From an uncultured Solirubrobacterales bacterium (GTDB lineage: Bacteria > Actinomycetota > Thermoleophilia > Solirubrobacterales > 70-9): a stretch of DNA of 64,000 nucleotides. A program made the translations under genes and the position numbers. Position 1 is the stretch's first letter, and the number at the start of each line of letters is the position of its first letter. Positions 38,876 through 62,944 of the stretch are shown in pieces. The stretch spans positions 718,426 through 782,425 of the forward strand of contig CAWEBQ010000003.1 of the NCBI GenBank assembly GCA_963807385.1. The letters run 5' to 3'. Under the pieces are notes generated by a model. That model worked only from the letters and a program-made list of their open reading frames with translations, did no database searches and was not told where the DNA came from.

Positions 38876-38885
38876 CCCCCGCACT

Positions 38886-38902: not shown

Positions 38903-38930
38903 TGACCCTGCCACAATTCGCGGCCGTCTC

Positions 38931-39836: not shown

Positions 39837-40699
39837 GCGATCCACGGCCCGTCCTGGTCGTCGGGCTGCAGAAGTCGGGGACGAGCCTGCTGCTGCGCCT
39901 GCTGTCTGAGACCAGCGCGTTCCGCAACCCGGTCCGCTTCGAGGGGCGCGAGCTGTGGGGAGACGACCCGCCGTTCGCACCAACCGCCTTTCCGGCGGGG
40001 ACGTTCTACCAGCGCGAGGGCGGCGAGAACGGGCACGAGCTGGGCGTCGCCGAGGCCACCGACGAGGTGCGCGAGCACCTTGAGCGGGCGCTGGCGGGCG
40101 CCGCGAGGCCGGGCAAGTCCCTGGTCCTGAAGAACCCGTACAACACCGTCCGCGTCCCATGGCTGCGCGCCCTGCTGCCGGACGCCGTGATCGTCGGCGT
40201 CGTGCGCCGAGCCTTGCCGAACACCTTCTCCCTGGTCAAGAAGCACGTCGAGAACCCTCACGTCCACCGCGGCCCGGAGGAGGGCTGGTGGGGGGTAAAG
40301 CCGGCCGGCTGGCGCGGGATCGTCTCCGAGGACAAGGTCGTGCAGGCGGCGCACCAGTGGGCGGGCGTAAACGGCAAGCTCTGGACGGACAGGGCGACCC
40401 TCGACCTGCTGGTCCCCTATCAGGATCTGTGCGCGGATCCTGCGGGGTTCGTGGGCCGGATCGGCGAGCTGGCCACGGACCGGGCGGTGACCGGGGAGTT
40501 CCCCGCCCTCGAAGCGCTCGACGACGAGTTCGAGCGCGGGGGCCCCTTGGAGTCTGCGAACCGCGTCTTCAAGCGCACCGGGTCGCTCGACCTCGAAGGA
40601 GCCGAGCGGGACCCGGCGCACCTCGAGCCGTACACGGAGGCCCAGCGCGCAAGGGTGCTCGCGATCTGCGAGCCGGTCGCGGCCCAGTTCGGGCTCTAA
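39833..40699 (+). CDS. Divergent sulfotransferase-family protein
   Basis: The GTG at 39833 overlaps the preceding stop (GTGA). It has a P-loop-like 5'-PSB motif VVGLQKSGTSLLLRLL and a later block LVLKNPYNTVRVPWLRALLPDAVIVGVVRRALPNTFS. The first part of track ORF 39554.. is a shadow. Confidence 0.7.
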   Translation: MSDPRPVLVVGLQKSGTSLLLRLLSETSAFRNPVRFEGRELWGDDPPFAPTAFPAGTFYQREGGENGHELGVAEATDEVREHLERALAGAARPGKSLVLKNPYNTVRVPWLRALLPDAVIVGVVRRALPNTFSLVKKHVENPHVHRGPEEGWWGVKPAGWRGIVSEDKVVQAAHQWAGVNGKLWTDRATLDLLVPYQDLCADPAGFVGRIGELATDRAVTGEFPALEALDDEFERGGPLESANRVFKRTGSLDLEGAERDPAHLEPYTEAQRARVLAICEPVAAQFGL

Positions 40700-42489
40700 C
40701 CGCGGGCCGCTGCTGCGAGCGTGCTCAGATGCGGTGCGAAACCCGCGCGCCAGGCGATGCGGGTGAGCATCCGCTCGTCGTGGGGACGCCCGCCGCCGTC
40801 GCGCGAGCGCTCCCACATCGCGCGGACCGCCTCCGGCTCGAAGACATCCTCCCAATCCCCCGCCGCGGCGATCAGCGCCTCCATCTCCTCGCGCCGCGCC
40901 GGCTGCTCGTAGAGGCGCCGGCGCGTGACGGGCCCGGCCGTCTCGGCCTCGAAGATGCGCACGCCCGCCCATTCTCCGAGCAGGCGCTCGACCAGGAGCG
41001 GGTGCAGCTTCGCGCGGACCCTCTGCAGCGGCTCGAGGTCGAAGCACGCGCGGACGAAGGCTGGGGTCGAGCAGGCCGACGAGCGGTCGTTCCGCGCCCC
41101 GAGGCCGGAGCGGAAGGCCAGGCGCTCGGTGAGGTAGTAGTAGTCGGTGAGAGAGGCGCCGCTGAGGCCCAGCTCGCGGCCGGACTCGAAGGCCCGGGTT
41201 GCCCCCTCACGAAACGTCGCGTAGGCCTCGGGCCGGGCGGCATCCCGCTTGCGCCTCGCCATCCGCTCGAACTTCTCGGCGAGCTGCGGGATGTCCATCG
41301 CCTCGGCGCGCTCCATCTTGCGCCGGCCCCCGTAGTAGAAGCCATGGCCCAGCTCCCCACCATGGCCGGAGACGATCGGCGGCAGGAAGCCGGACTGGGG
41401 CAGATCGAGCGGACCGCGGATCAGCGAGTGCGGGTTGAGCATCCCGTCGTGCACCAGGTGGTAGTCCGCCACCCGGTCCGCGATCGCATCGTCCTCGGTG
41501 GGGCTCTCCGCCGCGCGGACGACATGGTCGAGGGGCCTCGGCGCGGCGTCGAGCAGCTCTTGGACGACGTCCAGCTCCCCCGGCTCGAGGTCGACGGTCT
41601 GGAAGCGGCCGTCGATCCCGGCGGCGACGGCCGCGGCGGCGGAGACCCGCGAGTCGCGCCCACCGGAGAGGTCGATCGCCAGGCCGCAGGACCAGTTGGC
41701 GCGAAGGTCCCGGAACAGGCCCTTCGCCGCGCTCGCGGCGGCATCGGCGGAGCGGCCCAGCCTGGCCCGCCGGGGGCTCACCAGCTCGATCGCCCGGCGT
41801 GCCCGCGCCCGCCCTACCTCGATCCCCGACGGGCCGGGGCGAACCGTGAGCGCGCTCGCGCGGGGCACCTTCCGAGCTCCGGCGATCGCCGTCTCCTCGC
41901 CGAGGAACCAGCCCGTCGCCGCAAGCATCCCCCACGCGCGCTCGTCGAGCGCCGGGACCTCGCCGGCGAAGACCGGGAGCGCGCCCAGGCGGTTTGACCA
42001 CACCCGTAGGCCACCGCTCTCCAGTTCGTAGAGGCGAGCGGTGCCGATGAAGTCGTTGGCGACGTGCAGGTCCCCGGTGGCGGTGTCACGGACGCCCATG
42101 AGAAGCGGCGGATTGAGCTCGGCGATCAGGTCCGGGTCGGCCACCAGGCGGGCGGCCAGATCGGTCGCCGCCTCCGCGGGTGCAAGCTCGCCCAGGAGCG
42201 CGCCCCATCCGGTCGGCGGCGAGGTCCAGGCGACGGCGCGGCCGTCGCGCTCACTCCACAGCGGCCACAGGCGTCGCTCGTCGTCTCGGGCGAGCAAAGC
42301 AAGGCCAGTGCGGTGACCGAAGCTGGCGTGGCGAAGGAGCGGCTCCTCCGACAACGGCCCGTAGTGAGCCTCGACCCGGGCCAGAGCCCGCTCGACCTGG
42401 TCGTGCGGGACCTCACCGTCGTACGCCCACGCCAGCCAGGTGTGCTCGATGTAGTTGGGAACGCGGACGAGGCCGCCGTCGTCCGCCAT
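40696..42489 (-). CDS. Asparagine-synthase-like (PP-loop adenylating) enzyme lacking the N-terminal catalytic Cys
   Basis: 597 aa with PP-loop motif AIDLSGGRDSRV and AsnB-like C-terminal architecture. The N-terminus is MADDGG... rather than MCG. Its start overlaps the upstream gene's stop by 1 nt. Confidence 0.7.
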   Translation of the reverse strand: MADDGGLVRVPNYIEHTWLAWAYDGEVPHDQVERALARVEAHYGPLSEEPLLRHASFGHRTGLALLARDDERRLWPLWSERDGRAVAWTSPPTGWGALLGELAPAEAATDLAARLVADPDLIAELNPPLLMGVRDTATGDLHVANDFIGTARLYELESGGLRVWSNRLGALPVFAGEVPALDERAWGMLAATGWFLGEETAIAGARKVPRASALTVRPGPSGIEVGRARARRAIELVSPRRARLGRSADAAASAAKGLFRDLRANWSCGLAIDLSGGRDSRVSAAAAVAAGIDGRFQTVDLEPGELDVVQELLDAAPRPLDHVVRAAESPTEDDAIADRVADYHLVHDGMLNPHSLIRGPLDLPQSGFLPPIVSGHGGELGHGFYYGGRRKMERAEAMDIPQLAEKFERMARRKRDAARPEAYATFREGATRAFESGRELGLSGASLTDYYYLTERLAFRSGLGARNDRSSACSTPAFVRACFDLEPLQRVRAKLHPLLVERLLGEWAGVRIFEAETAGPVTRRRLYEQPARREEMEALIAAAGDWEDVFEPEAVRAMWERSRDGGGRPHDERMLTRIAWRAGFAPHLSTLAAAARG

Positions 42490-43421
42490 CAGGAGGAGCG
42501 CTCCGCGCGGCGCGCCTGGACATCGGCGAATGATTCATCTCGACTCGGCTTGAGCGGCAGGCGCGCCGCGAGCCAACGGCGGCGCTCGGAGTCCGCAAGC
42601 GGCGGCAGCAGCTCGTCCAGGAACCCTTCGACGTGGGCCCAGCGGTGCAGGTGCACGTGGACGAGGTCGTCGAGCTCGAGCGCCGATGCCGCGCCGGGCA
42701 GGCGGGCGCGCTGCGGCAGCGGGTAGTTGTAGGGCTCGGACAGCTCCCAGACCTCCTCGTGGCGGTCGGCGATCGTCGCCGCCCAGCTCATCTGGTCCAT
42801 CAGCTCAGGCTTGGCGTGGATGCACCCGGCGCCGACGAGGCGCTCGTGCGCCGCCTCCCAGGCGGAGAAGAGGCCAGCCGCACGCCGCGCCGCCAGCAGG
42901 CCGGCGTTCCAGTACGCGCGCACCCGAACGCCATCGACGGCGGTGAAGACGAAGGGCTCCGAGCTGACCCCCGCCGTCGCGTATAGCCGCTGCCACCACT
43001 CCTCGGCCTCGCCGTCATCCGGGCCGCGCGAGGCGGCGCGTGCGACGCCGACGGGCTTGGCCGCAGCGATCCAACTCCCCGTCGCCAGGTCCGACGGCTC
43101 GTTGACGAAGGCGCAGTCGCTGTCGGTGAAAACGAGGGTGGTGAAGTCCAGCTCTCGCTCGGCCCAGGCGGCCGCGTAGACCTTGTTCCATGTTGGGTGA
43201 TCGAGGTGGCGTTCGTTCAGGGGCTCGTCGATCAGCTCCACGCCGAGCCGGCCGAGCGCGGCTCTGGTCTCGGCGCCCGGGCCCAGGCCCGGTCGCGGCG
43301 CGAACGCGTAGACGGGCGCCTCGGCGTGAGCCCCCCCGAACTCCCGCAGCGACGAGACGCACAGGAGGGACTGCGCCTCCAGGGGGCCGCGCTCGACGCA
43401 GAGAAGGAAGGCCATCGACAT
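42489..43421 (-). CDS. Putative GT-A-like nucleotide-sugar transferase of an unassigned family (DxD motif)
   Basis: 310 aa: MAFLLCVERGPLEAQSLLCVSSLREFGG...LVFTDSDCAF...YWNAGLLAAR. It is collinear with the C-terminal half of 49829..51709. Confidence 0.6.
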   Translation of the reverse strand: MSMAFLLCVERGPLEAQSLLCVSSLREFGGAHAEAPVYAFAPRPGLGPGAETRAALGRLGVELIDEPLNERHLDHPTWNKVYAAAWAERELDFTTLVFTDSDCAFVNEPSDLATGSWIAAAKPVGVARAASRGPDDGEAEEWWQRLYATAGVSSEPFVFTAVDGVRVRAYWNAGLLAARRAAGLFSAWEAAHERLVGAGCIHAKPELMDQMSWAATIADRHEEVWELSEPYNYPLPQRARLPGAASALELDDLVHVHLHRWAHVEGFLDELLPPLADSERRRWLAARLPLKPSRDESFADVQARRAERSS

Positions 43422-43504
43422 GAGCCGGGCGAGGATAGGCGCAAAGCCGCAACGTGCGGGAACGCCGCGGCAGGGCCACCGCAGCGGCGTCTAGCATCGG
43501 CGCC

Positions 43505-44359
<855 letters not shown>

Positions 44360-45021: not shown

Positions 45022-45957
45022 GTGAACCTGTTCGTCCAGGGGATGCGCCGATCGGGCACGACGATCCTCTACGACGCCCTGCTCGAGGATCGCGAGCTGC
45101 GCTCGTTCTACGAGCCCCTGCGCGAGCAGAAGGTCTCGGTCGGCGGCGGCAGCGGCGCGCGCACCGGGGATGCGTTCGGCGAGACCGGTGCGCTGCGCGA
45201 GGCGTTCCGCGCCGATCGGTACCCAAAGCTCGACATCTCCGAGTTCAACTGGGGCGGGCCACGGAAGCCCCCGCTCGAGGTGGAGCCCGGGCTGCCGGAG
45301 CACGCGATGGAGTGGCTGCGCCACCTGCTGGGCACAGCGCCCGCGGTTGCGATCAAGGAGACGCGCTTCTACTCGAAGGTCCCGGAGCTTGTGAAGCTCG
45401 ACGCCGATGCAGCGCTCGTCCACGTCGTGCGGGACCCCCGCGCAGTGGCGGCCTCGATCGTGCTCGGGCGAGGGCGGCGCCAGGCCGAGAGGCTGCCCGA
45501 CGCCGACGCCTTCTTCGCCGACCGCTCGGAGCGCAAGCTCTGGTCGTGCCGCCCGATCTCGCGGCGGCTGATCCGCAAGGGACTCGCCTCTGGCGCCGAT
45601 GCCGCCTTCCTCGGGGATCCGTCGAACGTCCTGCGCGTGCTGCTGGTATGGAAGCTGACCTTCGAGCGCACGTTCGCCGAGGGTCGGCGGCTCTTCGGCG
45701 AGCGCTACCGCCTGGTGCGCAACGAGGACCTGCGAGGTGATCCCGCCGCGGCGCTCGGCTCCGTCTACGGAATCCTCGGCCGCGAGGTGCCCGCGGAGGT
45801 GGCGGCGTGGGCCGCCGCCAACGTACGCGAGCCCGAGCCCGTCTACGCCGCGGGCGACCCGCGCTGGGCCGAGGAGCTGCGGCGGGCCGGCATCTCGGAC
45901 GGGGTGCTGGCCGACGCGGGGTATTCCGCGGACCCGGCGGGTACGCTGGGCGCGTGA
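45022..45957 (+). CDS. Divergent sulfotransferase-family protein
   Basis: The GTG start gives MNLFVQGMRRSGTTILYDAL (5'-PSB). It also has AIKETRFY...LVHVVRDPRAVAASI (3'-PB-like). The stop overlaps the purS start (GTGA). Confidence 0.72.
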   Translation: MNLFVQGMRRSGTTILYDALLEDRELRSFYEPLREQKVSVGGGSGARTGDAFGETGALREAFRADRYPKLDISEFNWGGPRKPPLEVEPGLPEHAMEWLRHLLGTAPAVAIKETRFYSKVPELVKLDADAALVHVVRDPRAVAASIVLGRGRRQAERLPDADAFFADRSERKLWSCRPISRRLIRKGLASGADAAFLGDPSNVLRVLLVWKLTFERTFAEGRRLFGERYRLVRNEDLRGDPAAALGSVYGILGREVPAEVAAWAAANVREPEPVYAAGDPRWAEELRRAGISDGVLADAGYSADPAGTLGA

Positions 45958-46214
45958 AGGCAACGGTCCTGATCCGGCCCAAGGAGGGCATCCTCGACCC
46001 GCAGGGCAAGGCGGTCGAGCGCGCCCTGCCGGCGCTCGGGTTCTCGGGCATCTCCGGGGTGCGCGTCGGGCGCATGGTGGAGCTCGAGGTCGAGGACGCC
46101 GACGACCTGCCCTCCCTCTGCGAGAAGCTCCTCGCGAACCCGCTGATCGAGGACTATGAAGTACTGCCTGATGCCTCCTCCGCTTCGCGTCCGGGGGCAT
46201 CAGGGTCCGAGTGA
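45954..46214 (+). CDS. purS: FGAM synthase subunit PurS
   Basis: The GTG at 45954 gives VKATVLIRPKEGILDPQGKAVERALPALGF..V..VRVGR..ELE. Confidence 0.88.
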   Translation: MKATVLIRPKEGILDPQGKAVERALPALGFSGISGVRVGRMVELEVEDADDLPSLCEKLLANPLIEDYEVLPDASSASRPGASGSE

Positions 46215-46879
46215 CATTCGGGGTCCTTCAGTTCCCCGGCTCCTGCGACGAGCGCGATGCGCTTGCGGCCTGTGAGCGCGCCGGTGAGGCGCGGATGGTC
46301 TGGCACGAGGACACCGACCTGTCCGGTATCGATGCCGTCGTCGTGCCCGGCGGCTTCTCCTACGGCGACTACCTGCGGGCCGGGGCGATCGCACGCTTCT
46401 CGCCGGCGATGGGCGCCGTCGCCGGGTTCGCCGCCGCAGGCGGGCCGGTGCTCGGGATCTGCAACGGCTTCCAGGTTCTGTGCGAGGCGGGCCTGCTTCC
46501 CGGCGCGCTGCTGCCGAACGAGAGCGTCCGGTTCCTCTGCCGCCAGGTCGATCTGGTGGTCGAGAACGCGGACACTGCCTTTACTCGGGAGTGCTCGGTC
46601 GGCCAAACCCTCTCGATCCCCGTCAAGCACATGTCGGGGCGCTATTTCGCCCCGGACGAGCAGCTCGACGCGATGCAGGCGAGTGGCCAGGTGGTCCTGC
46701 GCTACGCCACCGGCCAGAACCCGAACGGCTCGGTTCGTGATGTGGCCGGCGTGATCAACGAGGCGGGCAACGTCATGGGCCTCATGCCCCACCCCGAGCA
46801 CGCGGTCGACGAGCTCGCGGGCTCGGCCGACGGGCTCGCGCTGTTCCGGTCCATGGCCGCCGTGCCCGCCGCGGCATAG
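46211..46879 (+). CDS. purQ: FGAM synthase glutaminase subunit PurQ
   Basis: Contains FGVLQFPGSCDERD, VVPGGFSYGDYLR, GICNGFQVL and MPHPE. Confidence 0.95.
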   Translation: MTFGVLQFPGSCDERDALAACERAGEARMVWHEDTDLSGIDAVVVPGGFSYGDYLRAGAIARFSPAMGAVAGFAAAGGPVLGICNGFQVLCEAGLLPGALLPNESVRFLCRQVDLVVENADTAFTRECSVGQTLSIPVKHMSGRYFAPDEQLDAMQASGQVVLRYATGQNPNGSVRDVAGVINEAGNVMGLMPHPEHAVDELAGSADGLALFRSMAAVPAAA

Positions 46880-47683
46880 ATGGCCGAGGGCACGGGGCGC
46901 CCCCGGCAGCGCTACCTGCTCCCGATCCCTACCCCGGAAGCGCCCCCGGGGCAGGTGACCGGCCCGCCGGACCTGATCGGGATCGGGGCCCAGCGCGCCG
47001 GGACGACCTGGTGGTGGCGCGGCGCGGTCCGCTCTCACCCCGGCTTCGCCCGCGACGTAAAGCCCGGCAAGGAGCTCCACTTCTTCGACCGCTTCTGGGA
47101 CGGGCGCGAGGTGCCCTCCGACCTCGCCGAGCAGTACGCGCTCCAGTTCCCCAGGCCCGAGGGAAAGCTCACGGGCGAGTGGACGCCCCGCTACATGCAC
47201 GACTACTGGACCCTGCCGCTGCTCCGCGCCGCTGCGCCGGAGGCGCGGATCCTGGTGATGCTGCGCGACCCCGTCGCCCGCTACCGCTCGGGCATCGCAC
47301 GCGAGCTGGGCATCGCCGGGAAGGCGGGCGAACCCCTGGAGATCGCGATCGTCGGCGACGCCGTGTACCGCAGCCTCTACAGCTCCCAGCTCCGGCGCCT
47401 CTTCGAGCTGTACGAGCGCGAGCGGGTGTTGGTCCTCCAGTACGAGCGCTGCGAGGCCGACCCCCTGGGGGAGATGCGACGCACCCACGAGTTCCTGGGT
47501 CTCGAGCCGCTCACCGAGATCCCGGGGGACCTCGACCGGCAGGTGGGGACCGCCCGCGAGAAGGTTCGCCTGGCTCCACTTTTGGAGGCGGAGTTGGCCG
47601 GTCGCCTCACCGAGGACGCACACAGGACCAGCGATCTGTGCCCTGAGATTGACCTCTCGCTGTGGCCCAGCGTCGGCGGATAG
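46880..47683 (+). CDS. Sulfotransfer_1-type (heparan-sulfate-ST-like) carbohydrate sulfotransferase
   Basis: The ATG directly abuts the purQ stop. Blocks are IGIGAQRAGTTWW, KELHFFD, EWTPRY and ILVMLRDPVARYRSG, which align by eye with the GxxKxGT / HFFD / TPxY / LRDPxxRxxS blocks of animal HS 3-O/N-sulfotransferases. Confidence 0.8.
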   Translation: MAEGTGRPRQRYLLPIPTPEAPPGQVTGPPDLIGIGAQRAGTTWWWRGAVRSHPGFARDVKPGKELHFFDRFWDGREVPSDLAEQYALQFPRPEGKLTGEWTPRYMHDYWTLPLLRAAAPEARILVMLRDPVARYRSGIARELGIAGKAGEPLEIAIVGDAVYRSLYSSQLRRLFELYERERVLVLQYERCEADPLGEMRRTHEFLGLEPLTEIPGDLDRQVGTAREKVRLAPLLEAELAGRLTEDAHRTSDLCPEIDLSLWPSVGG

Positions 47684-47745: not shown

Positions 47746-47805
47746 TGACGCGAATACTCGAGGGTGAGACGCTTGGGACGAGAAGCCCTACCTACACTCC
47801 GCGCC

Positions 47806-48900
47806 ATGAAGCTGGCCATGGCCATGAAGGTCCGCGACGAGGCGGACATCATCGAGTTGAACCTGCGCTACCACGCTGCGCAGGGCGTTGATGAGTTCAT
47901 CGTCACCGACAACGGCTCGACCGACGGCACCCTCGAGATACTCGAGCGGTGGCGCGACGAGGGGCGCCTGCGGCTGATCAGCGAGCCCAGCGCCGACGCC
48001 TTCCGCGACCAGGGGCACTGGTGGGTCACCCGCATGGGCCGGATGGGGGCCGAGGTGGGCGCCGACTGGGTCCTCCACGCCGACGCCGACGAGTTCTGGT
48101 GGCCAGCAGGGGGCGATCTGCGGCAGGGCTTCGAGTCGGTCCCCGAGGCCTACGGCGCCGTGATCGGCCCACGCAGCGAGTTCGTGGCACGGCCTGACGG
48201 GCCGGGCCCCTGGTGGGAACGCCTCACGGTTCGCGAGACCCGGACGGCGCTGCGCCCGAAGATCGCCCACCGGCCAGAGCCCGACCTGCGACTGCGCCGC
48301 GGGGCCCACGACGTGGACTTCGACGCCGACGAGCTGGCCCGAGCCGGCCGGCCTGTGCTCCGCGGCATTCGGGAGCGGATGCGCCACGACGACGGGCGCC
48401 TCGTCTACGCACCGGTCTTTCCCGCCCGCGTGCTCCACGTGCCGCTGCGGAGCTTCGAGCAGTACAAGCGGCGGGTAGAGGTGATGCTCTCCGGCGGCTT
48501 CCACGACAACACGCGCGAGAAGCTCCAGCAGGCCCATGACAGCGGGCGCCTGGAGGAGATGTACGCCGACCTCGCGGTGGACGACGCGACCGCGCAGGCG
48601 GGCGTGGCCGACGGCACCCTCGTGGTCGACGAGCGTCTGAAGCGAGTCCTTCCCAGCTACGCCGACGCCGACGGCGTGCCGGTGGCCGCGCTCGACCCCG
48701 CAGACGTCGAAGCGGAGCGCACGGATGTTGCCTTCGAGGGAATGCGCTCGCTGACCCGCTCCCAGCAGGTTCTGATGCGTCAGCGCGAGACGCTGAGGAG
48801 GCGCCTGGACCGCAAGGACGCGAAGCTCGCCGCCAGGGAGACCGATCGCGGCGACAGCCGGCTTCGGAACGTCGCGCGGATGCTGAACCGGCCTAGATGA
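47806..48900 (+). CDS. GT2-like (Glyco_tranf_2_4-like) glycosyltransferase
   Basis: The ATG at 47806 gives MKLAMAMKVRDEADIIELNLRYHAAQGVDEFIVTDNGSTDGTLEIL...HADADEFWWP. It is paralogous to the N-terminal half of 25309..27111. Confidence 0.8.
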   Translation: MKLAMAMKVRDEADIIELNLRYHAAQGVDEFIVTDNGSTDGTLEILERWRDEGRLRLISEPSADAFRDQGHWWVTRMGRMGAEVGADWVLHADADEFWWPAGGDLRQGFESVPEAYGAVIGPRSEFVARPDGPGPWWERLTVRETRTALRPKIAHRPEPDLRLRRGAHDVDFDADELARAGRPVLRGIRERMRHDDGRLVYAPVFPARVLHVPLRSFEQYKRRVEVMLSGGFHDNTREKLQQAHDSGRLEEMYADLAVDDATAQAGVADGTLVVDERLKRVLPSYADADGVPVAALDPADVEAERTDVAFEGMRSLTRSQQVLMRQRETLRRRLDRKDAKLAARETDRGDSRLRNVARMLNRPR

Positions 48901-49832
48901 TCATCGCGCGTCGCTTCAGGCCCCGGCGCCGGGCGCCGGGACTCCCCGCGCCCTTCGTCGTCGGCGTCGGCCGCTCCGGCACAACGCTCCTGCGGCTGAT
49001 GCTCGACGCCCACCCCGACCTGGCGATGCCGCCGGAGACCGGATTCGCGCCGAGCGTGATCCGCGCAGGCCGCAACGGCCCGACACCCGCGAGCATGATG
49101 GAGCTGCTGCGCGAGCAGCGGAGCTGGGGCGACCATCACGTCGATGATGCCCAGCTCGAGCGCCGCCTCCGCGCCGCCAGAAGGCTCGACGGGACATCGG
49201 CCCTGCGCGCCTTCTACGGCCTCTACGCCGAGCGCCAGGGCAAACCGCGCTGGGGCGACAAGACCCCCGGGTACGTGAAGAAGATGCCGATGATCGAGCG
49301 CGCGCTCCCGGAGGCGCGTTTCATCCACGTGATCCGCGACGGACGAGACGTCTCGCTCTCCCGCGGGAGGCGCCGCCTCGCCGAGGGCGACGCGCCGGGG
49401 CCCGGGCGGGTCGCCGAGATGTGGCGCAACCGGATCCTGCGCGCCCGCGAGGACGGTGAGCGCCTCCGTCACTACCTGGAGATCCGCTACGAGGACCTGG
49501 TGACGGACACCGAACCCACCCTTCGTCGGGTCGCGGACCTGATCGAGCTCCCCTGGGACGGCGCGATGCTGACCTACTACGAGCGCGCGCCCGAGCGCCT
49601 GGCCGAGATGGCGCGGGACCTGCCCGCGACAGGCAAGAAGCTCTCGCGCTCGGGAGACGAGCGAATGGCTGCCCACGCCCTCGCGGCCGAGCCGCCAAAG
49701 GCCGACAGAATCGCGACGTGGCGCGAGCGCATGGGCGAGGAGGACCTCACGGCCTTCGAGGACGTGGCCGGGGACCTGCTCGCCGAACTCGGATACGAGG
49801 TCGGGAGCGGTCAGACTTCGGGCGTCGCATGA
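48897..49832 (+). CDS. TPST-like sulfotransferase
   Basis: ATGA overlap. Contains PFVVGVGRSGTTLLRLMLDAHPDLAMPPETGF, KPRWGDKTPGY, VIRDGRDVSLS and LEIRYEDLV. Confidence 0.9.
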   Translation: MIIARRFRPRRRAPGLPAPFVVGVGRSGTTLLRLMLDAHPDLAMPPETGFAPSVIRAGRNGPTPASMMELLREQRSWGDHHVDDAQLERRLRAARRLDGTSALRAFYGLYAERQGKPRWGDKTPGYVKKMPMIERALPEARFIHVIRDGRDVSLSRGRRRLAEGDAPGPGRVAEMWRNRILRAREDGERLRHYLEIRYEDLVTDTEPTLRRVADLIELPWDGAMLTYYERAPERLAEMARDLPATGKKLSRSGDERMAAHALAAEPPKADRIATWRERMGEEDLTAFEDVAGDLLAELGYEVGSGQTSGVA

Positions 49833-51709
49833 GCGCTGGCGCCGCGCAGAGCCCCGCCCCCTTTGTGGTCGGCATGAACCGCTCGGGCACGACCCTGCTG
49901 CGGATGATGCTCGATGCCCATCCCGAGCTCGTGATTCCGCCCGAGACGCACTTCATCCCAGACCTGATCAAGGCGACCAGGAAACGGGGCGCGAAGCCCG
50001 CTGACGCGCTGGCGGCGATGAGGTCCCACCGCGAATGGGAGGACTTCGCCTTCACCGACGCCGAGGCGCTGGCCTGGCTGGAGGGGCTGCCCCGCCTGGA
50101 GCCCGGCCCCGCCGTGCGCGCCTTCTACAAGGCCTACGCAGCCCGCGCGGGCAAGCCGCGATGGGGAGATAAGACGCCCCGCTACGTGCTGAAGATGCCG
50201 CGGCTCCAGGCGGCCCTGCCGGAGGCGCGGTTCGTCCACGTGATCCGCGACGGACGGGACGTCGCGCTCTCGGTACTCGACCGGACCGTGAAAGACCTCG
50301 ACGCGCCCGAGGTCGCCCGGCGCTGGAGCCGCAAGATCGAGCGGGCGCGCGCCGACGCACCTGCCCTAGCGCACTACCTCGAGGTGCGCTACGAGGAGCT
50401 CGTGTCCAACCCGAGGCCGGTGCTCGAGCGGATCTGCGAGTTCCTCGACCTGCCCTTCGATGAGGCCATGCTCGACTACCACGAGCGCTCCGGCGAGCGC
50501 CTGGAGGAGATGCGCCGCGGGCTGCCGGGGGCCGGCAACTCCGCGGAGCTCTCGGTCGAGCGACGGATGGAGACCCACCGCCGCACCACCGCGCCGCCCG
50601 ACGCCTCGAGGGCGACGCGCTGGCGCGAGGAGATGAGCGCGGAGGATCGGTCCGGCTTCGAACGCGTCGCCGGCGGAACGCTTGGCCGCCTCGGCTACAG
50701 ACCCTCCAACACCCCAAGCGTCGCGTTTTTGATCTGCGTGGAGGAGGGCCAGCTCGAGCAACAGGGGATCCTGTTCGCGCGCTCGCTGCGGCGCTTCGGC
50801 GGGCGCTTCGCGGGCTGCGCCGTCCACGCCTACGCGCCCCGCAAGGGACGCAACCCCTCGGCAGGGACCACCGCGGCGCTGGAGTCGGAGGGCGTCACGG
50901 TCCACACCGAGGTCCTGAACGCCGACCACGACTTCTACCCCTTTGCGAACAAGATCTACGCGGCCGCCGCGGCGGAGCGCGACCTCGACGAGGACGTGGT
51001 CGTCTTCACCGACTCCGACACGGTGATCATGAGCTCCCCGGACGCGCTCGAGCTGGCCGAGGACACGGACGTGGCGGCGGCGCCGGCGTTCCACGTCAAC
51101 AAGGCGAGCACGGGGCCCGGCCACCGGATGGAGGGCTACTGGGACCGGGTCTGGGAGCTGGCCGGCGTGCCCGGCGAGCCGCCCTGGGTCGAGACGTCGG
51201 AGCGCAAGAGGCCGGTCCGCTGCTACTTCAACGCGGGGATCCTGGCGGCGAGGCGGTCCTCCGGCTACTGCTCGGAGTGGCTGGAGCTGTGGAGGATGCT
51301 GCTGGCGGAGCAGCACTTCCCCGATGGCAAGATGATGGTCACCGACCAGGTGGCGATCTCGGCCGCGGTCGCCCGCCGGCCAGACCGGTTCGTTGCTTTC
51401 GAGCGCACCTACAACTACAACGTCCACCGCCGCCCCTACTACTCGGGCGGCATGGACACGGCCGACCTGCCGGACCTGGTCCACCTGCATTACCACCAGT
51501 GGTTCAACCGCCGGAACGTCCTTCGCGACCTGCGCCCGCCGCTCAGCCCGGACACCGAGCAGTACCTGTGGCTCGACTCGGAGCTGCCCCTCGAGCCCGC
51601 GATCCGCGCCCCGCTCCCCAGGCCCGGCCGCAAGCGCTCGCGCTGGCGCAACCGGGGCCTGGGCAAGCTGCGCTCGCCGTTGAGGGAGATCGGGAGGTCG
51701 GACAAGTGA
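49829..51709 (+). CDS. Bifunctional fusion: N-terminal TPST-like sulfotransferase plus C-terminal GT-A-like DxD domain
   Basis: ATGA overlap. The first roughly 295 aa contain PFVVGMNRSGTTLLRMMLDAHPELVIPPETHFIP...KPRWGDKTPRY...VIRDGRDVALS. From about nt 50711 it reads VAFLICVEEGQLEQQGILFARSLRRFGG...VVFTDSDTVI...YFNAGILAAR, which is paralogous to 42489..43421. Confidence 0.85.
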   Translation: MSAGAAQSPAPFVVGMNRSGTTLLRMMLDAHPELVIPPETHFIPDLIKATRKRGAKPADALAAMRSHREWEDFAFTDAEALAWLEGLPRLEPGPAVRAFYKAYAARAGKPRWGDKTPRYVLKMPRLQAALPEARFVHVIRDGRDVALSVLDRTVKDLDAPEVARRWSRKIERARADAPALAHYLEVRYEELVSNPRPVLERICEFLDLPFDEAMLDYHERSGERLEEMRRGLPGAGNSAELSVERRMETHRRTTAPPDASRATRWREEMSAEDRSGFERVAGGTLGRLGYRPSNTPSVAFLICVEEGQLEQQGILFARSLRRFGGRFAGCAVHAYAPRKGRNPSAGTTAALESEGVTVHTEVLNADHDFYPFANKIYAAAAAERDLDEDVVVFTDSDTVIMSSPDALELAEDTDVAAAPAFHVNKASTGPGHRMEGYWDRVWELAGVPGEPPWVETSERKRPVRCYFNAGILAARRSSGYCSEWLELWRMLLAEQHFPDGKMMVTDQVAISAAVARRPDRFVAFERTYNYNVHRRPYYSGGMDTADLPDLVHLHYHQWFNRRNVLRDLRPPLSPDTEQYLWLDSELPLEPAIRAPLPRPGRKRSRWRNRGLGKLRSPLREIGRSDK

Positions 51710-52605
51710 GCGCCGAATCCGTAGCGCCGGTGCCGTTCATCGTCGGGGTGCCGCGCTCCGGGACGACGATGCTGCGGCTGATGCTCGACGCGCACCCCGA
51801 CCTGGCGATCCCGCCCGAGACCTATTTCGTCACCAACCTGATCGAGGCCGGGTACGGCGGCGCCGGGCCCGAGCAGCTCGCCAACGTGCTCGTCAGCCAC
51901 CGGCGCTGGGGCGATCTGGGAATCGAGGAAGCCGAGCTTCGCCGCCGCCTGAACGAGATCGGGCGGCCTAGCGGCGGGGACGCGGCGAGGGTGGCGTTCG
52001 AGCTCTACGCCCACGGCCGCGGCAAGCCGCGCTGGGGCGACAAGACGCCGGCGTACCTCACCAACATCGCGGAGATCCACGAGGCGCTGCCCGAGGCCCG
52101 CTTCATCCACCTGATCCGCGACGGGCGCGACGTCGCGCTCTCCATCCTGCGGATGCCGGAGGCCGACCGGCCGATGCGCCGGCCCGACTCCGTCGGGCTC
52201 GTCGCGAGGCGCTGGAGCCGGCGGATCAAGCGCGCCCGCGCCCAGGCCGATGGCCTCCCCCACTACCTCGAGCTCCGCTACGAGGACCTGGTGCGCGATC
52301 CCGGGCCCGCCTTGCGCCAAGCGTGCGACCTGATCGAGCTGCCGTTCACCGAGTCGATGCTGGACTTTCACGCCGGGGCCTCGGAGCGCCTGGCCGAGAT
52401 CGACCGCGACCTCGCGGCGCGCGACGATCTACCGGCCCAGTCCGCTGAGGGCCGGACCGCGCCGCACGCCCTGGCGTCGCAGCCGCCAAGCGAAGGACGG
52501 ATCGGCGTCTGGCGCGAGGAGATGACCGCCGAGCAGCTGGCCGAGTTCGAGGACAAGGGCGGCGAGATGCTGCGGTCGCTCGGCTACGACGGGGGCGGGG
52601 GATGA
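51706..52605 (+). CDS. TPST-like sulfotransferase
   Basis: GTGA overlap. Contains PFIVGVPRSGTTMLRLMLDAHPDLAIPPETYF, KPRWGDKTPAY and LIRDGRDVALS. Confidence 0.9.
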   Translation: MSAESVAPVPFIVGVPRSGTTMLRLMLDAHPDLAIPPETYFVTNLIEAGYGGAGPEQLANVLVSHRRWGDLGIEEAELRRRLNEIGRPSGGDAARVAFELYAHGRGKPRWGDKTPAYLTNIAEIHEALPEARFIHLIRDGRDVALSILRMPEADRPMRRPDSVGLVARRWSRRIKRARAQADGLPHYLELRYEDLVRDPGPALRQACDLIELPFTESMLDFHAGASERLAEIDRDLAARDDLPAQSAEGRTAPHALASQPPSEGRIGVWREEMTAEQLAEFEDKGGEMLRSLGYDGGGG

Positions 52606-53549
52606 GCCCGTTGCTGCGACGCCGCTCCACGCCCGGTGGCCCTCCCGCCCCGTTCGTGGTCGCGAGCCCACGGTCGGGCACCACGCTCCTGCGGATGATG
52701 CTCGACGCCCATCCCGAGATGGCGGTTCCCTTCGAGACCCATTTCGTACCCGAGTTGATCGGCGCCGTTGAGGCGGGCGGCGGTGCGGCCTCGGCGCTTC
52801 AGGTCGTTACCGGGCACCGTCGATGGGGCGATTTCGGGCTCGACGACGAGGCCTTGGCGGAACGGCTGCGCTCGCACGGCGAGCTCACCCCCGGCGACGC
52901 CGTGCGCAGCTTCTACACCCTCTACGCGGAATCGCAGGGGAAGCCCCGCTGGGGCGACAAGACCCCGGAGTACGTGGAGTTCATGCGGCCGATCGCGGGA
53001 GCGCTCGGGGAGGCGCGCTTCGTCCACGTCATCCGCGACGGGCGCGACGTGGCGATGTCGCGGATCCGCTGGCGCCAGAAGCGCAGCGGCAAGACACCGC
53101 CCGTGCGTCGGATGGCCCGGCGCTGGAAGGAGGCGATCACCGTCGCCCGCGAGCAGGCGAGGAAGGTGGGTCACTACGTCGAGGTTCGCTACGAGGACCT
53201 CGTGGCCGAGCCGGAGGCAACGCTGGGGAGGATCTGCGACTTCGCGGAACTGGACTACGACTCGGCGATGCTGAGCTACCACGAGCGAGCCTCCGAACGG
53301 ATGGCGGAGATCGACCGGACGCTCCCGGGCACAAGCGACCGGGTTGAGCTGGACGCTTCGCAGCGCCTCGCCAAGCACGAGATGGCGACCAAGCCGCCGG
53401 AGCGCGACCGGATCCTGGCCTGGCGCAACGACATGAGCGAGGCCGACCGGCGGGAGTTCGAGGCCATCGCCGGGAAGCTCCTGCGGGACCTCGACTACCC
53501 CGTGGGCGACGGTGCGGTGGCCGCGGCCGCGGTGGTAGCGGAGGGCTGA
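52602..53549 (+). CDS. TPST-like sulfotransferase
   Basis: ATGA overlap. Contains PFVVASPRSGTTLLRMMLDAHPEMAVPFETHF, KPRWGDKTPEY and VIRDGRDVAMS. Confidence 0.9.
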   Translation: MSPLLRRRSTPGGPPAPFVVASPRSGTTLLRMMLDAHPEMAVPFETHFVPELIGAVEAGGGAASALQVVTGHRRWGDFGLDDEALAERLRSHGELTPGDAVRSFYTLYAESQGKPRWGDKTPEYVEFMRPIAGALGEARFVHVIRDGRDVAMSRIRWRQKRSGKTPPVRRMARRWKEAITVAREQARKVGHYVEVRYEDLVAEPEATLGRICDFAELDYDSAMLSYHERASERMAEIDRTLPGTSDRVELDASQRLAKHEMATKPPERDRILAWRNDMSEADRREFEAIAGKLLRDLDYPVGDGAVAAAAVVAEG

Positions 53550-54472
53550 TGGCCGCGCACCCCGCCCCCGCGCCGTTCATCGTCGCCAACCCCGGGTCGG
53601 GCACGACCCTGCTGCGGATGATGCTTGACGCTCATCCGGACCTGGCGATCCCGCCGGAGACCCACTTCGTCCCCGAGGTGATCGATCGGGCCCGCGAGAT
53701 CCGCAGGGCCAGCGACCGCAAGCCCACCGGCGAGGAGCTAGCCGACGCGATCGCCGCGGGACGCCGCTGGGAGGACTTCCACCTCGACCGCGGCGAGCTG
53801 GCGAAGCGCATGTCGGGACGCAGGGGCGAGGCCGGGGCGCGGGCGGCGATACGCGCCTTCTACGAGATGTACGCGGAGGCTCAGGGCAAGGCGCGCTGGG
53901 GCGACAAGACGCCCGACTACCTGCTGTCAATCCGGCGGATCGGCAAGACGCTGCCCGAGGCCCGATTCGTCCACCTGATCCGCGACGGTCGCGACGTCGC
54001 CACCTCCCGGCGGCGCTGGCGTGAGCGGGCCGGCGGACGGGAGCGCTCGGTCACGGCCTGGGCCGGACAGTGGCAGCGATGGATCGAAACCGCTCGCAAG
54101 CAGTCGGGCGACGTCGCGCACTACCTGGAGGTCCGCTACGAGGACCTCGTCACGGACACGGAGCCGGCGCTGCGCCGGGTCTGCGAGTTCGCGGAGCTCG
54201 ACTTCCGCCCAGAGATGCTCGATTACCACGAGCGCGCCGCCGGACGGCTTCGCGAGCTTGACCGCTCGCTGCCCGCCGCCGAGGGCAAGGGCGCGCGCGA
54301 GGCCTCTCACCGTCAGGCCAAGCACTCGCTGACGGCCGCGCCGCCGCAGGAGGCGAAGGTGCAGGCGTGGCGCCACGACATGAGCGAGGCCGACCGGGTT
54401 GCGTTCGAGGCGGAGGCCGGAGAGCTGCTCGCCGAGCTCGGCTACCCGGTGGGGGAGGCGGTCTCCTCGTGA
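53549..54472 (+). CDS. TPST-like sulfotransferase
   Basis: TGATG overlap. Contains PFIVANPGSGTTLLRMMLDAHPDLAIPPETHF, KARWGDKTPDY and LIRDGRDVATS. The 5'-PSB motif has G in place of R (PGSGTT). Confidence 0.88.
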   Translation: MAAHPAPAPFIVANPGSGTTLLRMMLDAHPDLAIPPETHFVPEVIDRAREIRRASDRKPTGEELADAIAAGRRWEDFHLDRGELAKRMSGRRGEAGARAAIRAFYEMYAEAQGKARWGDKTPDYLLSIRRIGKTLPEARFVHLIRDGRDVATSRRRWRERAGGRERSVTAWAGQWQRWIETARKQSGDVAHYLEVRYEDLVTDTEPALRRVCEFAELDFRPEMLDYHERAAGRLRELDRSLPAAEGKGAREASHRQAKHSLTAAPPQEAKVQAWRHDMSEADRVAFEAEAGELLAELGYPVGEAVSS

Positions 54473-55566
54473 GGGTCGGCGTGGTGACGAAGTGGTTCAA
54501 CCGGGGGCAGCCGGTCGTCGGACGCTACCTCCGCTCGGCGCTCGATGAGCTGGGCCACGAGACTTTCGTCCTGGCGAGACCGAGGCGCGAGGACGGCCCG
54601 ATGCCGGGCGCCCTCTCCAATGACGACGTTTGGGATCAGCCCGGCGTCACCGAGGGCTCCGCCTACGACATCCCGATGCGGGAGTACGAGGCATGGGCCG
54701 CGGAAAACGGGATCGAGGTCGTCTTCTGCGACCAGAACTACCAGTTCGACGAGGTCCGGAGGCTGCGCGAGGGGGGGCTGCGGACCGTGGGCCGATTCGT
54801 CTGGGAGCACTTCTCCGAGCAGCATGTCGATGGCGCGGGGTCCGCCTACGACGTGGTGTACTCGTTCACCCGGTCCGAGCAGGCCCGCTACGCCGAGCTG
54901 GGGATCGAGAGCCCCTACGTCACGTGGGGCTGCCACCCGGAGCTGGTGGCGGTCGGCGATGCGAGGCGACCCGCCGGCGACGGCCTGGTCCGAGCGGTCT
55001 TCCCCGGTGGGTTCCTCGGCAACCGCAAGCCGGTCGAAACGGTGCTGGAGGCCTTCGCGCGAACCGTGGATGAACGACTGCGGCTGCTGGTGAAGACCCA
55101 GGTTGAGCGCGAGCAGCTGAAGCCGGTCCTCGCCGCGGCAGAGGCCGACCCCAGGATCGAGGTGCTGGTGGAAAACGAGGCGACAGCCGATCACCTGCAG
55201 CGCTTCGCCGCGAACGACTTCTGCGTCGCGCCCGCCCGCTGGGAGGGCCTGGGGCTGCCGCTTTATGAGTCGATGGCGTTCGGGATGCCGGTGATCACGA
55301 ACGACTACCCGCCGCTGAACGAGGCGGTCACCGACGACGTGAACGGCCTGCTGGTCTCCGGCTCCCCCACCGGCAAGACCACGCGCTCGGGCATCCCGTG
55401 GCAGACGCCGGATGTGCGCGAGCTGGCCGCAGCTATCGAGCGCCTTGCCGACGATGAGCTTCGCGAACGGCTGAGCGCCGGGCAGATCGCGCTCCGCGAC
55501 GGCGCCCGGGCCTGGAGCCACACCGTGTCGGGGATCGGCGCGCTGGCCGAGGGGCGAGAGCCGTGA
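54469..55566 (+). CDS. GT4-family (GT-B) glycosyltransferase, paralog B
   Basis: The GTG at 54469 (GTGA overlap) gives VRVGVVTKWFNRGQPVVGRYLRSALDELGHETFVLARP...PARWEGLGLPLYESMAFGMPVITNDYPPLNEAVTDDVNGLLV. It is collinear with 32570..33655. Confidence 0.88.
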   Translation: MRVGVVTKWFNRGQPVVGRYLRSALDELGHETFVLARPRREDGPMPGALSNDDVWDQPGVTEGSAYDIPMREYEAWAAENGIEVVFCDQNYQFDEVRRLREGGLRTVGRFVWEHFSEQHVDGAGSAYDVVYSFTRSEQARYAELGIESPYVTWGCHPELVAVGDARRPAGDGLVRAVFPGGFLGNRKPVETVLEAFARTVDERLRLLVKTQVEREQLKPVLAAAEADPRIEVLVENEATADHLQRFAANDFCVAPARWEGLGLPLYESMAFGMPVITNDYPPLNEAVTDDVNGLLVSGSPTGKTTRSGIPWQTPDVRELAAAIERLADDELRERLSAGQIALRDGARAWSHTVSGIGALAEGREP

Positions 55567-56537
55567 GCGAGCGGCTAGGCCCGCTCGCCATCGCGGGACG
55601 CAAGCTCAGCCTGATGAAGCGCCGCAGGCGCCTGCGGCGCGCCGCGGCTCGGCTCCACGGCGGCACGCCCGATCCGCCGGCCCCGTTCATCGGCGGGGCG
55701 ACGCGATCGGGAACCACGCTGCTTCGGCTGATGCTGGACGCCCATCCGGATCTGGCAATCCCATCCGAGACGCATTTCGTGCCGGCCATGATCTCGCGCT
55801 GCGTCGAGGGGCCGGTTGAGGCGGGCGAGCTGGCGGCGATCGCAACAAGCCATCCGCGCTGGGGCGACTTCGGTCTCGAGGCCGCCGAGTACGTGGCGCG
55901 GGTGCAGGCCCTGGAGCCACTGACCGCCGCCGAGGCCGTGCGCGAGTTCTACCGCCTCTACGCCGACGGCCAAGGGAAGGTCCGGTGGGGCGACAAGACC
56001 CCTGGCTACATCCGCAAGACCCGGCCGATCCAACGGGTGCTGCCGGAGGCCCGGTTCATCCACATGATCCGCGACGGGCGTGACGTCGCCCTGTCGGTGA
56101 TGCCACTCAACTTCGGCCCCTCGACCGTCACCGGAGCCGCCGAGCTTTGGGTCAAGCGGGTGAGCCTGGGCCGAAAGCAGGCCAAGGCCGCCGACCACTA
56201 CGCCGAGGTCTTCTACGAGGAGCTGATCGAGCAGACGGAGCCGGCGCTGCGGCAGGTGTGCGATTACCTCGACCTGCCCTTCCACCGCGCCATGCTGGAC
56301 TACCACCAGCGGGCGGGAGAACGCCTGGCCGAGAAGGCACGCGACCTCAAAAAGGAGGACGGGCGCACCCAGCCCGCCGAGGCGCGGATCACGAGTCACG
56401 CCCTCGCCTCGGAGGCGCCGCGGGCCGACCGCATCGGCCGCTGGCGCCGCGAGATGACCGAGGCGGACGTGGCGGAGTACGAGCGGGTCGCCGGGGAGCT
56501 CCTCGCCGAGCTCGGCTACGAGCTGGGCTCGGGCTGA
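55563..56537 (+). CDS. TPST-like sulfotransferase (last gene of the operon)
   Basis: GTGA overlap. Contains PFIGGATRSGTTLLRLMLDAHPDLAIPSETHF, KVRWGDKTPGY and MIRDGRDVALS. Confidence 0.9.
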   Translation: MSERLGPLAIAGRKLSLMKRRRRLRRAAARLHGGTPDPPAPFIGGATRSGTTLLRLMLDAHPDLAIPSETHFVPAMISRCVEGPVEAGELAAIATSHPRWGDFGLEAAEYVARVQALEPLTAAEAVREFYRLYADGQGKVRWGDKTPGYIRKTRPIQRVLPEARFIHMIRDGRDVALSVMPLNFGPSTVTGAAELWVKRVSLGRKQAKAADHYAEVFYEELIEQTEPALRQVCDYLDLPFHRAMLDYHQRAGERLAEKARDLKKEDGRTQPAEARITSHALASEAPRADRIGRWRREMTEADVAEYERVAGELLAELGYELGSG

Positions 56538-62104: not shown

Positions 62105-62944
62105 ATGACCTCCGGCTCAGAGCCCGATCCGATGCTGCCCCAGGTCCGCGCCGGGATTGCGGTGCTGTTGGCGCTCGCGATAGCCAATGGAGCCTTCCTC
62201 TACTTTCTTCCCGGTCGGGCCGAGCCCGACTACGCGTGGGCGATCGCGTTGCCGGTGAGCGCGGCGTTCATGGGGGCGGGCTACCTGGCCGGCACCGTCG
62301 CCACGGGGCTTGGCACCTTCGCCGCGCGGTATTGGCGATCCGTCCGCGCGCTGGTACCGGCCTTCTGCGTGCTCGGGTTGACTCTGCTCGCGGCGACCCT
62401 GATAGACGCCGAGCAGTTCCGCTGGGACTACTTCCCCACCTGGGTGTGGACGATCGTCTACGCCGCGCTTCCCCCTGCGGCCGTGTACTTCTGGATCCTT
62501 CAGGAGCGTGTCGCCGGTGAGCAGCCCGAGCGCGACGTACGGCTGTCGTCGCTCTGGGCGCCGGCAGTGCTGGTGGGCGTGATCCTCGGGGTCGTCGGCC
62601 TCGCCCTCTTCGCAGCGCCGGACTCGCTCCTCGAGGAGTGGCCGTGGGACATCACCCCATTGCTCGCACGCGTATTCGGGGGCTGGTACCTGCTAGCCGC
62701 CACCACCCTGATCTTCTCGGCTGCGAGCGTCCGTCGCGCGCACGAGATGCCGATTCCCTTCGCGACGGTGGCGACCTGGTGCCTCCTGATCGTGTTGCTG
62801 CCACTGCTCTACTCGGACACCGTGCGCACCAGTGGCATCGGCTTCTGGGGATTCGTAGGAATCCACGCCATTGTGCTGGCCGGCTGCACGTTCGCGGTCG
62901 TGCGCAGCGCCGCCCTGATGCGGGTCGACGGCGCGCGGCTCTAG
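62105..62944 (+). CDS. Internally duplicated polytopic membrane protein (paralog 2 of 3)
   Basis: 279 aa with DYAWAIALPVSAAFMGAGYLAG and EEWPWDITPLLARVFGGWYLLAA, plus a TWVW motif. Same family as 1977..2843. Confidence 0.7.
   Translation: MTSGSEPDPMLPQVRAGIAVLLALAIANGAFLYFLPGRAEPDYAWAIALPVSAAFMGAGYLAGTVATGLGTFAARYWRSVRALVPAFCVLGLTLLAATLIDAEQFRWDYFPTWVWTIVYAALPPAAVYFWILQERVAGEQPERDVRLSSLWAPAVLVGVILGVVGLALFAAPDSLLEEWPWDITPLLARVFGGWYLLAATTLIFSAASVRRAHEMPIPFATVATWCLLIVLLPLLYSDTVRTSGIGFWGFVGIHAIVLAGCTFAVVRSAALMRVDGARL

Follow-up and report, generated by a model that had tools for sequence, protein, structure and literature searches.

Sulfotransferases among and fused to glycosyltransferases in a genomic island of Solirubrobacterales: TPST-like enzymes with probable sugar acceptors

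A 64,000-nucleotide stretch of an uncultured Solirubrobacterales bacterium (GenBank assembly GCA_963807385.1, contig CAWEBQ010000003.1, positions 718,426 to 782,425 of the forward strand; hereafter, the window) carries eight paralogous sulfotransferases (STs) which resemble the tyrosylprotein sulfotransferases (TPSTs) of animals and which lie among glycosyltransferases (GTs) or are fused to them. In our reading, the eight paralogs are O-sulfotransferases dependent on 3'-phosphoadenosine 5'-phosphosulfate (PAPS) and most probably act on the sugar hydroxyls of a glycoconjugate that the co-encoded GTs assemble; we give this a probability of roughly 0.65. A carbohydrate acceptor is favored because of the ST-GT fusions, the interleaved GT genes, and the lack of any precursor peptide or peptide exporter in the locus. 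Family, fold, conservation of catalytic residues, fusions, synteny, and the absence of peptide-pathway genes were each shown by the analysis.

Eight paralogs and three distant sulfotransferases

Because the G+C content of the window is about 71%, genes were chosen among the open reading frames (ORFs) by their third-position GC (GC3). A tblastn search with the protein of ORF 48897-49832 (ST2, our reference copy) found exactly eight full-length copies in the window, itself included, at 44-56% identity (E 1e-67 to 1e-96), and all eight matched Pfam PF13469 (Sulfotransfer_3) with E values of 1e-32 to 1e-42 and 114-147 bits, the gathering score being 27 bits. An earlier note on this DNA, drawn up from the letters alone, had recognized eight such paralogs, and the four peptide strings it quoted are all located in ORF 48897-49832; however, the span it assigned to them, 48897-54472, holds five of the eight. 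Seven are on the forward strand: ST1 (38862-39836; PF13469 1.6e-42), ST2 (48897-49832; 2e-35), ST3 (the first part, to about 50710, of a fusion at 49829-51709; 2e-37), ST4 (51706-52605; 2e-39), ST5 (52602-53549; 2e-33), ST6 (53549-54472; 1e-35), and ST7 (55563-56537; 2e-32), the last gene of the array. ST8 (25309-26220, reverse strand; 3e-37) is the C-terminal half of another fusion.

The same note missed three distant ST genes, all on the forward strand, which score 42-52 bits against PF13469 and bring the ST domains of the window to 11 in total. That at 46880-47683 is of the Sulfotransfer_1/3 type (PF13469 1e-11, PF00685 3e-9) and, among the references compared, is closest to XssA of Synechocystis (52 bits), while that at 45022-45957 (PF13469 2e-10) lies between purC and purS. 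The third and divergent gene (39839-40699; PF13469 1.3e-13; P-loop GLQKSGTSLL) has a GC3 of 0.92 in its frame and occupies an apparent gap of 859 bp; simple ORF and GC3 filters overlook it because the longest ORF of its frame begins inside the upstream gene. No signal peptide or transmembrane segment was detected in any ST or GT of the window.

By aligning the eight paralogs, which are 45-56% identical to the reference copy, we found that the SGTT motif, E47, K122, the RDGR motif (R147), and S155 are invariant, and that the arginine of the 5'-phosphosulfate-binding (5'-PSB) loop (xRSGTT) is kept in seven, with glycine in its place in ST6 (PGSGTT). This glycine recurs in four ST6 orthologs from related loci (L002, L003, L038, L055), which are 71-81% identical. 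Identity among the paralogs amounts to 69-78% in the PAPS-binding and catalytic segments and to 14-33% in the indel-rich segments aligned to the peptide contacts of TPST. A conserved donor and catalytic core with a variable acceptor side is the pattern expected of enzymes that use a common donor and differing acceptors. Orthologs of each paralog except ST8 occur in related genomes at about 80% identity, whereas the paralogs share about 50% with one another; they hence go back to old duplications and have since been retained.

The likeness to TPSTs is genuine and family-wide

The resemblance to TPSTs that the note had proposed was borne out by sequence, profile, and structure. In a phmmer search of PDB sequences, TPST1 (7e-14) and TPST2 (6e-12) came out on top; a family profile built from 81 members matched TPSTs with E values of 3e-27 to 8e-23; and a Foldseek search with the AlphaFold2 model of 48897-49832 (predicted local distance difference test [pLDDT] score, 89.6), the structure comparison that the note had suggested, returned tick and human TPSTs first (E 1e-12, template modeling [TM] score of about 0.6, 24% identity). 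BLASTP aligned this protein with TPST1 from end to end, placing its C-terminal LGYE on LGYD, the last third of the TPST1 sequence in this alignment having been entered by hand. The catalytic residues of TPST1 are R79, E100, K159, and S286 (PMC5562738). The HMMER alignment pairs R26, E47, and K122 with R79, E100, and K159, and RDGRxxxxS with the 3'-phosphate-binding (3'-PB) motif, in agreement with the Glu and Lys positions that had been matched by eye. Across the eight paralogs Glu and Lys are invariant and Arg is present in seven, while a serine equivalent to S286 is found in four, in a gapped part of the alignment of lower confidence. The window enzymes have in common with animal TPST1/TPST2 (PDB 5WRI, 3AP1) and tick TPST (8W5Z) the PF13469 family, the fold, the 5'-PSB and 3'-PB motifs, the positions of the catalytic R/E/K, and the C-terminal LGY[DE]. 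They differ in that they are only about 24-25% identical, are fused to or interleaved with GTs, and are soluble and cytoplasmic, whereas TPSTs are Golgi membrane proteins.

This likeness does not discriminate between acceptors, because the STs of OLS and CurM score about the same as TPSTs and those of bacterial clusters score higher. OLS and CurM reach profile E values of 9e-23 and 5e-18 and Foldseek TM scores of 0.55-0.6, nearly as good as the TPSTs; these STs (CurM/OLS, PDB 4GBM and 4GOX) are domains in polyketide synthase (PKS) modules and act on beta-hydroxyacyl-acyl carrier protein, whereas the window has no PKS. For every one of the eight paralogs, STs from bacterial polysaccharide or other biosynthetic clusters outscore TPST1: XssE, an Antarctobacter enzyme, and one from a Sinorhizobium plasmid reach 76-108 bits, and TPST1 reaches 64-78 bits. 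When plasmids were searched by tblastn, the matches included annotated STs within polysaccharide clusters, such as XssE in the xss cluster of Synechocystis pSYSM, and the Antarctobacter ST sits in a cluster of GT1, GT2, GT4, and methyltransferase genes. Among NCBIfam models, NoeE, the rhizobial Nod-factor ST, was the only one touched by any paralog (E 2e-12 to 1e-9 over the N-terminal part); since the scores are 38-47 bits against an equivalog cutoff of 500 bits, the paralogs are not its orthologs. NoeE is a carbohydrate O-sulfotransferase.

A rival reading, in line with the note, is O-sulfation of tyrosines in a secreted protein or ribosomal peptide, as carried out by animal TPSTs and by Xanthomonas RaxST. 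The common family, fold, and aligned catalytic R/E/K speak for this idea, as does the fact that TPSTs are the best matches by sequence and fold among solved structures; but the likeness is not specific, and the paralogs do not conserve the set of elements with which TPST1 holds its peptide, namely, R102, R106, R123, and R285, which bind acidic residues, and the T199 backbone strand. The R102 position reads G/G/H/Y/H/H/H/H and the R106 position S/G/D/N/E/E/A/M in the eight, R285 is kept in three of them, and in place of the T199 strand there is a loop rich in indels, where the paralogs have a pairwise identity of 14% and the model a pLDDT of 69-77. The RTX-like, FG-GAP/ASPIC, and beta-helix proteins named as potential targets are indeed encoded in the window with N-terminal hydrophobic, signal-like segments, and the FG-GAP/UnbV_ASPIC gene (27143-28942, reverse strand; PF13517 1e-20, PF07593 9e-14), for a putative secreted or anchored protein, is directly upstream of the GT2-ST fusion. 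However, its homologs accompany the island in only 3 of 75 related loci (L015, L017, L037). These loci, each fetched with at most 21 kb, are the sample to which all such counts refer.

No precursor peptide came to light either. The small Tyr/Asp-rich ORFs that the note had proposed to look for were absent from the gaps of the window locus, and clustering of 896 small intergenic ORFs from the window and the 75 loci yielded only purS, GYD, a CsoR-like regulator, gene fragments, and antisense artefacts, with no conserved Tyr/acidic small ORF. A peptidase-containing ABC exporter was likewise found neither in the window nor in the related loci. RaxST, likened here by description, we take to be a soluble bacterial TPST-like enzyme of the same family as the paralogs that uses cytoplasmic PAPS. 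Its gene sits with the substrate gene raxX and the maturation/export genes raxA/raxB, and RaxST homologs without RaxX are widespread and presumably use other substrates (bioRxiv 10.1101/149930), whereas nothing like raxX, raxA, or raxB occurs in the window locus or the related loci. A peptide substrate would also hardly account for the retention of eight paralogs or for three kinds of GT fusion, and we consider tyrosine sulfation by these enzymes highly improbable.

Glycosyltransferases of the locus and their fusions

Between 24.4 and 56.5 kb, the 11 ST domains are accompanied by six GT domains, namely, two GT4, two GT2-type, and two GT8-like, which is the co-location of STs with several GTs seen in the synechan xss cluster. 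Both fusions that the note had pointed out are real. The first, a 600-amino-acid (aa) ORF at 25309-27111 on the reverse strand, joins an N-terminal GT2/GT92-like domain (PF13704 4e-13) to ST8 (PF13469 3e-37), both recognized by Pfam. The second is one continuous ORF (49829-51709) in which ST3 is followed by a domain (50711-51709) with a predicted GT-A fold, which is 41% identical to the stand-alone GT8-like protein of 42489-43421 (reverse strand). The AlphaFold2 model of the latter (pLDDT 96.5) was matched by Foldseek to ABO GTB at 4e-8 and to others up to 5e-7 (LARGE1, XXYLT1, WbbM, glycogenin), that is, to the GT6/GT8/GT24 type, and all 57 sequences compared have the DxD motif (D100/D102). 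Judged from the model, both domains clearly appear to be GT-A retaining enzymes, GT6/GT8/GT24-like. Whether searched as a single sequence or as a profile, this domain had no match in Pfam, NCBIfam, or PDB sequences; its relatives number 252, the named ones coming from Solirubrobacterales metagenome-assembled genomes (MAGs).

Unfused genes of the same families as the two fusion partners are also present in the window, which we count as support. Besides the GT8-like gene, there is a GT2-type gene (Glyco_tranf_2_4; 47764-48900, forward strand; PF13704 1e-17) directly upstream of ST2, probably starting near 47806, with 35% identity to the GT2 domain of the GT2-ST fusion. The two GT4 genes (54469-55566, PF00534 7.5e-17; 32570-33655, PF00534 4e-18; both forward) are 54% identical, and the second precedes GYD-purD-purE-purB, a position conserved in L033, L036, L065, and L070. 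Searching PDB sequences with the GT4 and GT2 proteins gave no useful information. An NAD-dependent sugar-nucleotide epimerase/dehydratase (24421-25383, forward strand; PF01370 2e-59) begins the region.

The fusions are not confined to the window. Nine database protein clusters contain the GT2-ST architecture at full length (39-72% identity), the ST-GT8-like fusion is conserved in five related genomes (L001, L002, L003/L076, L038, L055), and a third architecture, GT4-ST-ST, is found in metagenomes as a 1,016-aa protein with 12 member sequences (P0312). Nothing else argues as strongly for STs that work in concert with sugar transfer as these three independent fusions of one ST family with three different GT folds, two of them in the window, and we agree with the note that the fusions favor carbohydrate acceptors. 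Among the metagenome relatives, ST-ST tandems about 640 aa long (P0250, P0289, P0340) are common. We had considered proteins of this length as ST-GT8 fusions and rejected this, as they are genuine ST-ST tandems; matches of 418-534 aa were rejected as new domain fusions, each being one full and one partial ST copy, apparently a truncated or merged tandem-ST gene call. The catalytic motifs in the second ST domain of P0340 are degenerate (GDDTP, ARSGTD).

A variable island at the purine operon

Pfam annotation of the first part of the window gives dnaK-grpE-dnaJ-hspR-clpB, followed by the epimerase. After it come the GT2-ST fusion and the FG-GAP/ASPIC gene (both reverse), SnoaL, a cyclase-AAA-TPR gene (reverse), GT4, GYD, purD, purE, and purB; then a P450 gene (reverse), ST1, an ST-like gene, the gene for a 597-aa protein and the GT8-like gene (both reverse), purC, DUF5701, an ST-like gene, purS, and purQ; and finally an ST-like gene, GT2, ST2, the ST3-GT8-like fusion, ST4, ST5, ST6, GT4, and ST7. 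Beyond ST7 are the unrelated genes SnoaL, TetR, cupin, beta-helix, and MMPL. The island anchors, both on the forward strand, are purC (43454-44359), by eye a SAICAR synthetase whose orthologs in L076 and L078 carry PF01259, and purS with purQ (45954-46879), identified from ORF translations, whose orthologs carry PF02700 and PF13507. From purC onward the genes run on a single strand with short gaps, and those of 48897-56537 abut or overlap by 1-4 nucleotides: the start of ST2 overlaps the stop of the upstream GT2 gene, the ATG of the ST3 fusion overlaps the ST2 stop as ATGA, and ST4 overlaps its upstream gene by 4 nucleotides. A scan of 43-57.8 kb for promoters and terminators gave nothing above chance.

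More than 7,000 proteins matched at E <1e-10, the named ones almost all from Solirubrobacterales MAGs, and a scan of GTDB species representatives returned at least 558 stretches that encode such proteins. Solirubrobacterales, Conexibacteraceae, or Thermoleophilia account for nearly all of these stretches, and the best has 88% amino acid identity. Family and island are thus widespread in Solirubrobacterales, and at the level of genes the note's view of either outcome as unusual for such a bacterium is not borne out. The 75 related loci contain 288 ST regions, 1 to 8 per locus, and a recurring arrangement among them is purC, an ST-like gene, purS, and purQ, followed by the GT/ST array. purC was found in 43 loci and purQ in 46, GT4 genes were found in 55, and an ST like that of 45022-45957, between purC and purS, was found in 43 (including L076, L077, and L078). 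In the islands most like that of the window, the order is GT2, ST, ST-GT8-like, one to five STs, GT4, and ST. Between the fusion and GT4, there are one to five STs in L001, L002, L003, L038, and L055 and three in the window, and this varying number points to ongoing gain and loss of copies. A second group of islands has four GT4 genes, two S-adenosylmethionine-dependent methyltransferases, a secreted 834-aa protein, and a lipoprotein whose similarity to glycosidases of clan GH-A is below threshold (GH39, E 0.08) and serves as a hint only. In Solirubrobacterales/Thermoleophilia, an island of GTs and STs, in some genomes with methyltransferases as well, occupies the same chromosomal position around the purine operon while its content varies, and the locus of the window is one version of it. 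From the synteny we also considered a functional link between the STs and purine chemistry, found no evidence for it, and treat the arrangement as co-location.

Lipid, small-molecule, and protein-linked acceptors

A cytochrome P450 gene (37227-38570, reverse strand) diverges from ST1, and P450 homologs are found in 21 of the 75 loci. This pairing recalls Cyp128 and Stf3 of Mycobacterium tuberculosis, which lead to sulfomenaquinone, and raises the idea that the STs sulfate a noncarbohydrate small molecule or lipid, such as a P450-hydroxylated lipid or isoprenoid, or activate a hydroxyl as in CurM. That OLS and CurM are almost as close as TPSTs fits this idea, and so does an MMPL transporter gene (59929-62067, reverse strand), a homolog of resistance-nodulation-division-type lipid/glycolipid exporters, 3.4 kb beyond the array. 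MMPL homologs also lie between purQ and the first GT4 gene in two related islands (L009, L075). However, there are no PKS, nonribosomal peptide synthetase, or terpene genes; in most of the loci concerned, the P450 gene is upstream of purC, usually beside it, with no ST between them; and GTs are far more constant partners and the ones with which the fusions are made. We therefore regard a small-molecule or nonglycosylated lipid acceptor as unlikely. A glycolipid product would fit both this idea and a sugar acceptor, and the MMPL genes near the array and inside two islands keep a sulfoglycolipid in play, for which MMPL would be a candidate exporter.

A related observation concerns lipid supply. 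At 12109-14803 (reverse strand) is a group of genes that encode myo-inositol-1-phosphate synthase, a CDP-alcohol phosphatidyltransferase, and a PAP2 phosphatase; the closest ST gene is about 10 kb away. These genes resemble a phosphatidylinositol-type lipid pathway and could supply a glycolipid anchor.

The sugars might instead be attached to a protein, such as an S-layer or secreted glycoprotein, which would be a subcase of a carbohydrate acceptor with a protein scaffold. The GT8-like folds include XXYLT1, LARGE1, GlyE, and UGGT, which extend protein-linked glycans, the locus lacks lipid-carrier machinery, and the secreted FG-GAP/ASPIC protein adjoins the GT2-ST fusion. On the other hand, we recognized no oligosaccharyltransferase or protein O-glycosyltransferase, the enzymes are all cytoplasmic while the candidate targets are exported, and none of these candidates is conserved from locus to locus, all of which makes a protein-linked glycan quite unlikely.

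A sulfated glycoconjugate as the proposed product

Sugar hydroxyls as acceptors account best for these findings, and the closest parallel is the xss cluster, which is genetically tied to sulfated exopolysaccharide (synechan) in Synechocystis (PMC8205485). As in the window, its PF13469-type STs, XssE and XssA, are found among GT2 and GT4 genes, and XssE aligns with the paralogs over the full length (25% identity, pairwise E 8e-24, 76-101 bits), although in the BLASTP alignment it is without the TPST-type Lys that the paralogs keep. The xss cluster has genes for Wzx, Wzy, and a polysaccharide copolymerase and two STs for eight GTs, whereas the window has 11 ST and six GT domains, ST-GT fusions, and no export or polymerase genes. 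The high ratio of STs to GTs suggests heavy sulfation.

We propose that the soluble cytoplasmic paralogs and the three distant STs would act alongside the six GT domains and the sugar-nucleotide epimerase, and that the product would be a multiply sulfated glycoconjugate, whether an oligo- or polysaccharide, a glycolipid, or a protein-linked glycan. With acceptor-side loops of its own on the common PAPS-binding and catalytic core, each paralog would be specific for another hydroxyl, or another sugar, of the glycan as it grows, while a fusion protein would both transfer a sugar and sulfate it. The carbohydrate acceptor is thus what we infer from the genes, together with regiospecificity, multiple sulfation, and a possible cell-surface destination.

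Several points weigh against sugar acceptors. The closest solved structures by both sequence and fold really are TPSTs, and no carbohydrate-acting PF13469 structure was among the structure matches. In the window and the annotated related loci, we found no priming phosphoglycosyl transferase, flippase, polymerase, or ABC exporter, unlike in a standard Wzx/Wzy or ABC polysaccharide locus, and genes for PAPS synthesis are absent from the window. The activities of the island STs are predictions from genes and models; judging from its sequence, ST6, which lacks the catalytic Arg, may be inactive, a pseudo-enzyme, or use an alternative residue.

Other features of the window

A gene at 40696-42489 (reverse strand) encodes the soluble 597-aa protein, which has homologs in 8 of the 75 loci and no match in Pfam, NCBIfam, or PDB. 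Its SGGRDS motif, by eye, recalls PP-loop ATP pyrophosphatases or asparagine synthetase. Three paralogous membrane proteins are encoded toward the two ends of the window (1977-2843, reverse; 62105-62944, forward; 62941-63765, reverse), with 5-8 predicted transmembrane segments, a common FWPW motif, and no Pfam family.

Discussion

PF13469 STs in glycan clusters are known from cyanobacteria and have been proposed in Pontiella and Actinoplanes (PMC8205485, PMC7356697, PMC13390465). Bacterial sulfated polysaccharides have been described as essentially confined to cyanobacteria (PMC8205485), and those of actinomycetes as a possibility awaiting verification (PMC13390465, 2026); our literature search for STs in Solirubrobacter, Conexibacter, or Thermoleophilia found nothing relevant. 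What is new here is the number of STs, the GT-ST fusions, the absent membrane machinery, and the order-wide conservation.

In its widest form, the proposal is that a whole order of Actinomycetota abundant in soil makes a hypersulfated glycoconjugate, with sulfates roughly equal to or exceeding the sugars, entirely by means of soluble cytoplasmic enzymes, including bifunctional GT-ST proteins, encoded in a hypervariable island that is co-oriented and possibly co-transcribed with the purine operon. The product would be a heparin-like polyanion or a sulfoglycolipid outside cyanobacteria and animals. This we put forward tentatively, at somewhat less than even odds.

For annotation, the present case advises caution, in that "TPST-like" in a bacterial genome is not evidence for protein tyrosine sulfation. 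If sugars are indeed the acceptors, the island would be a source of soluble, possibly regiospecific carbohydrate STs and of natural GT-ST fusions for glyco-engineering. It would also mean that glycan sulfation is a heavy investment of a soil lineage both ubiquitous and poorly cultured, and would point to a likely major anionic component of its envelope or matrix, with a bearing on soil sulfur cycling, metal binding, and desiccation tolerance.

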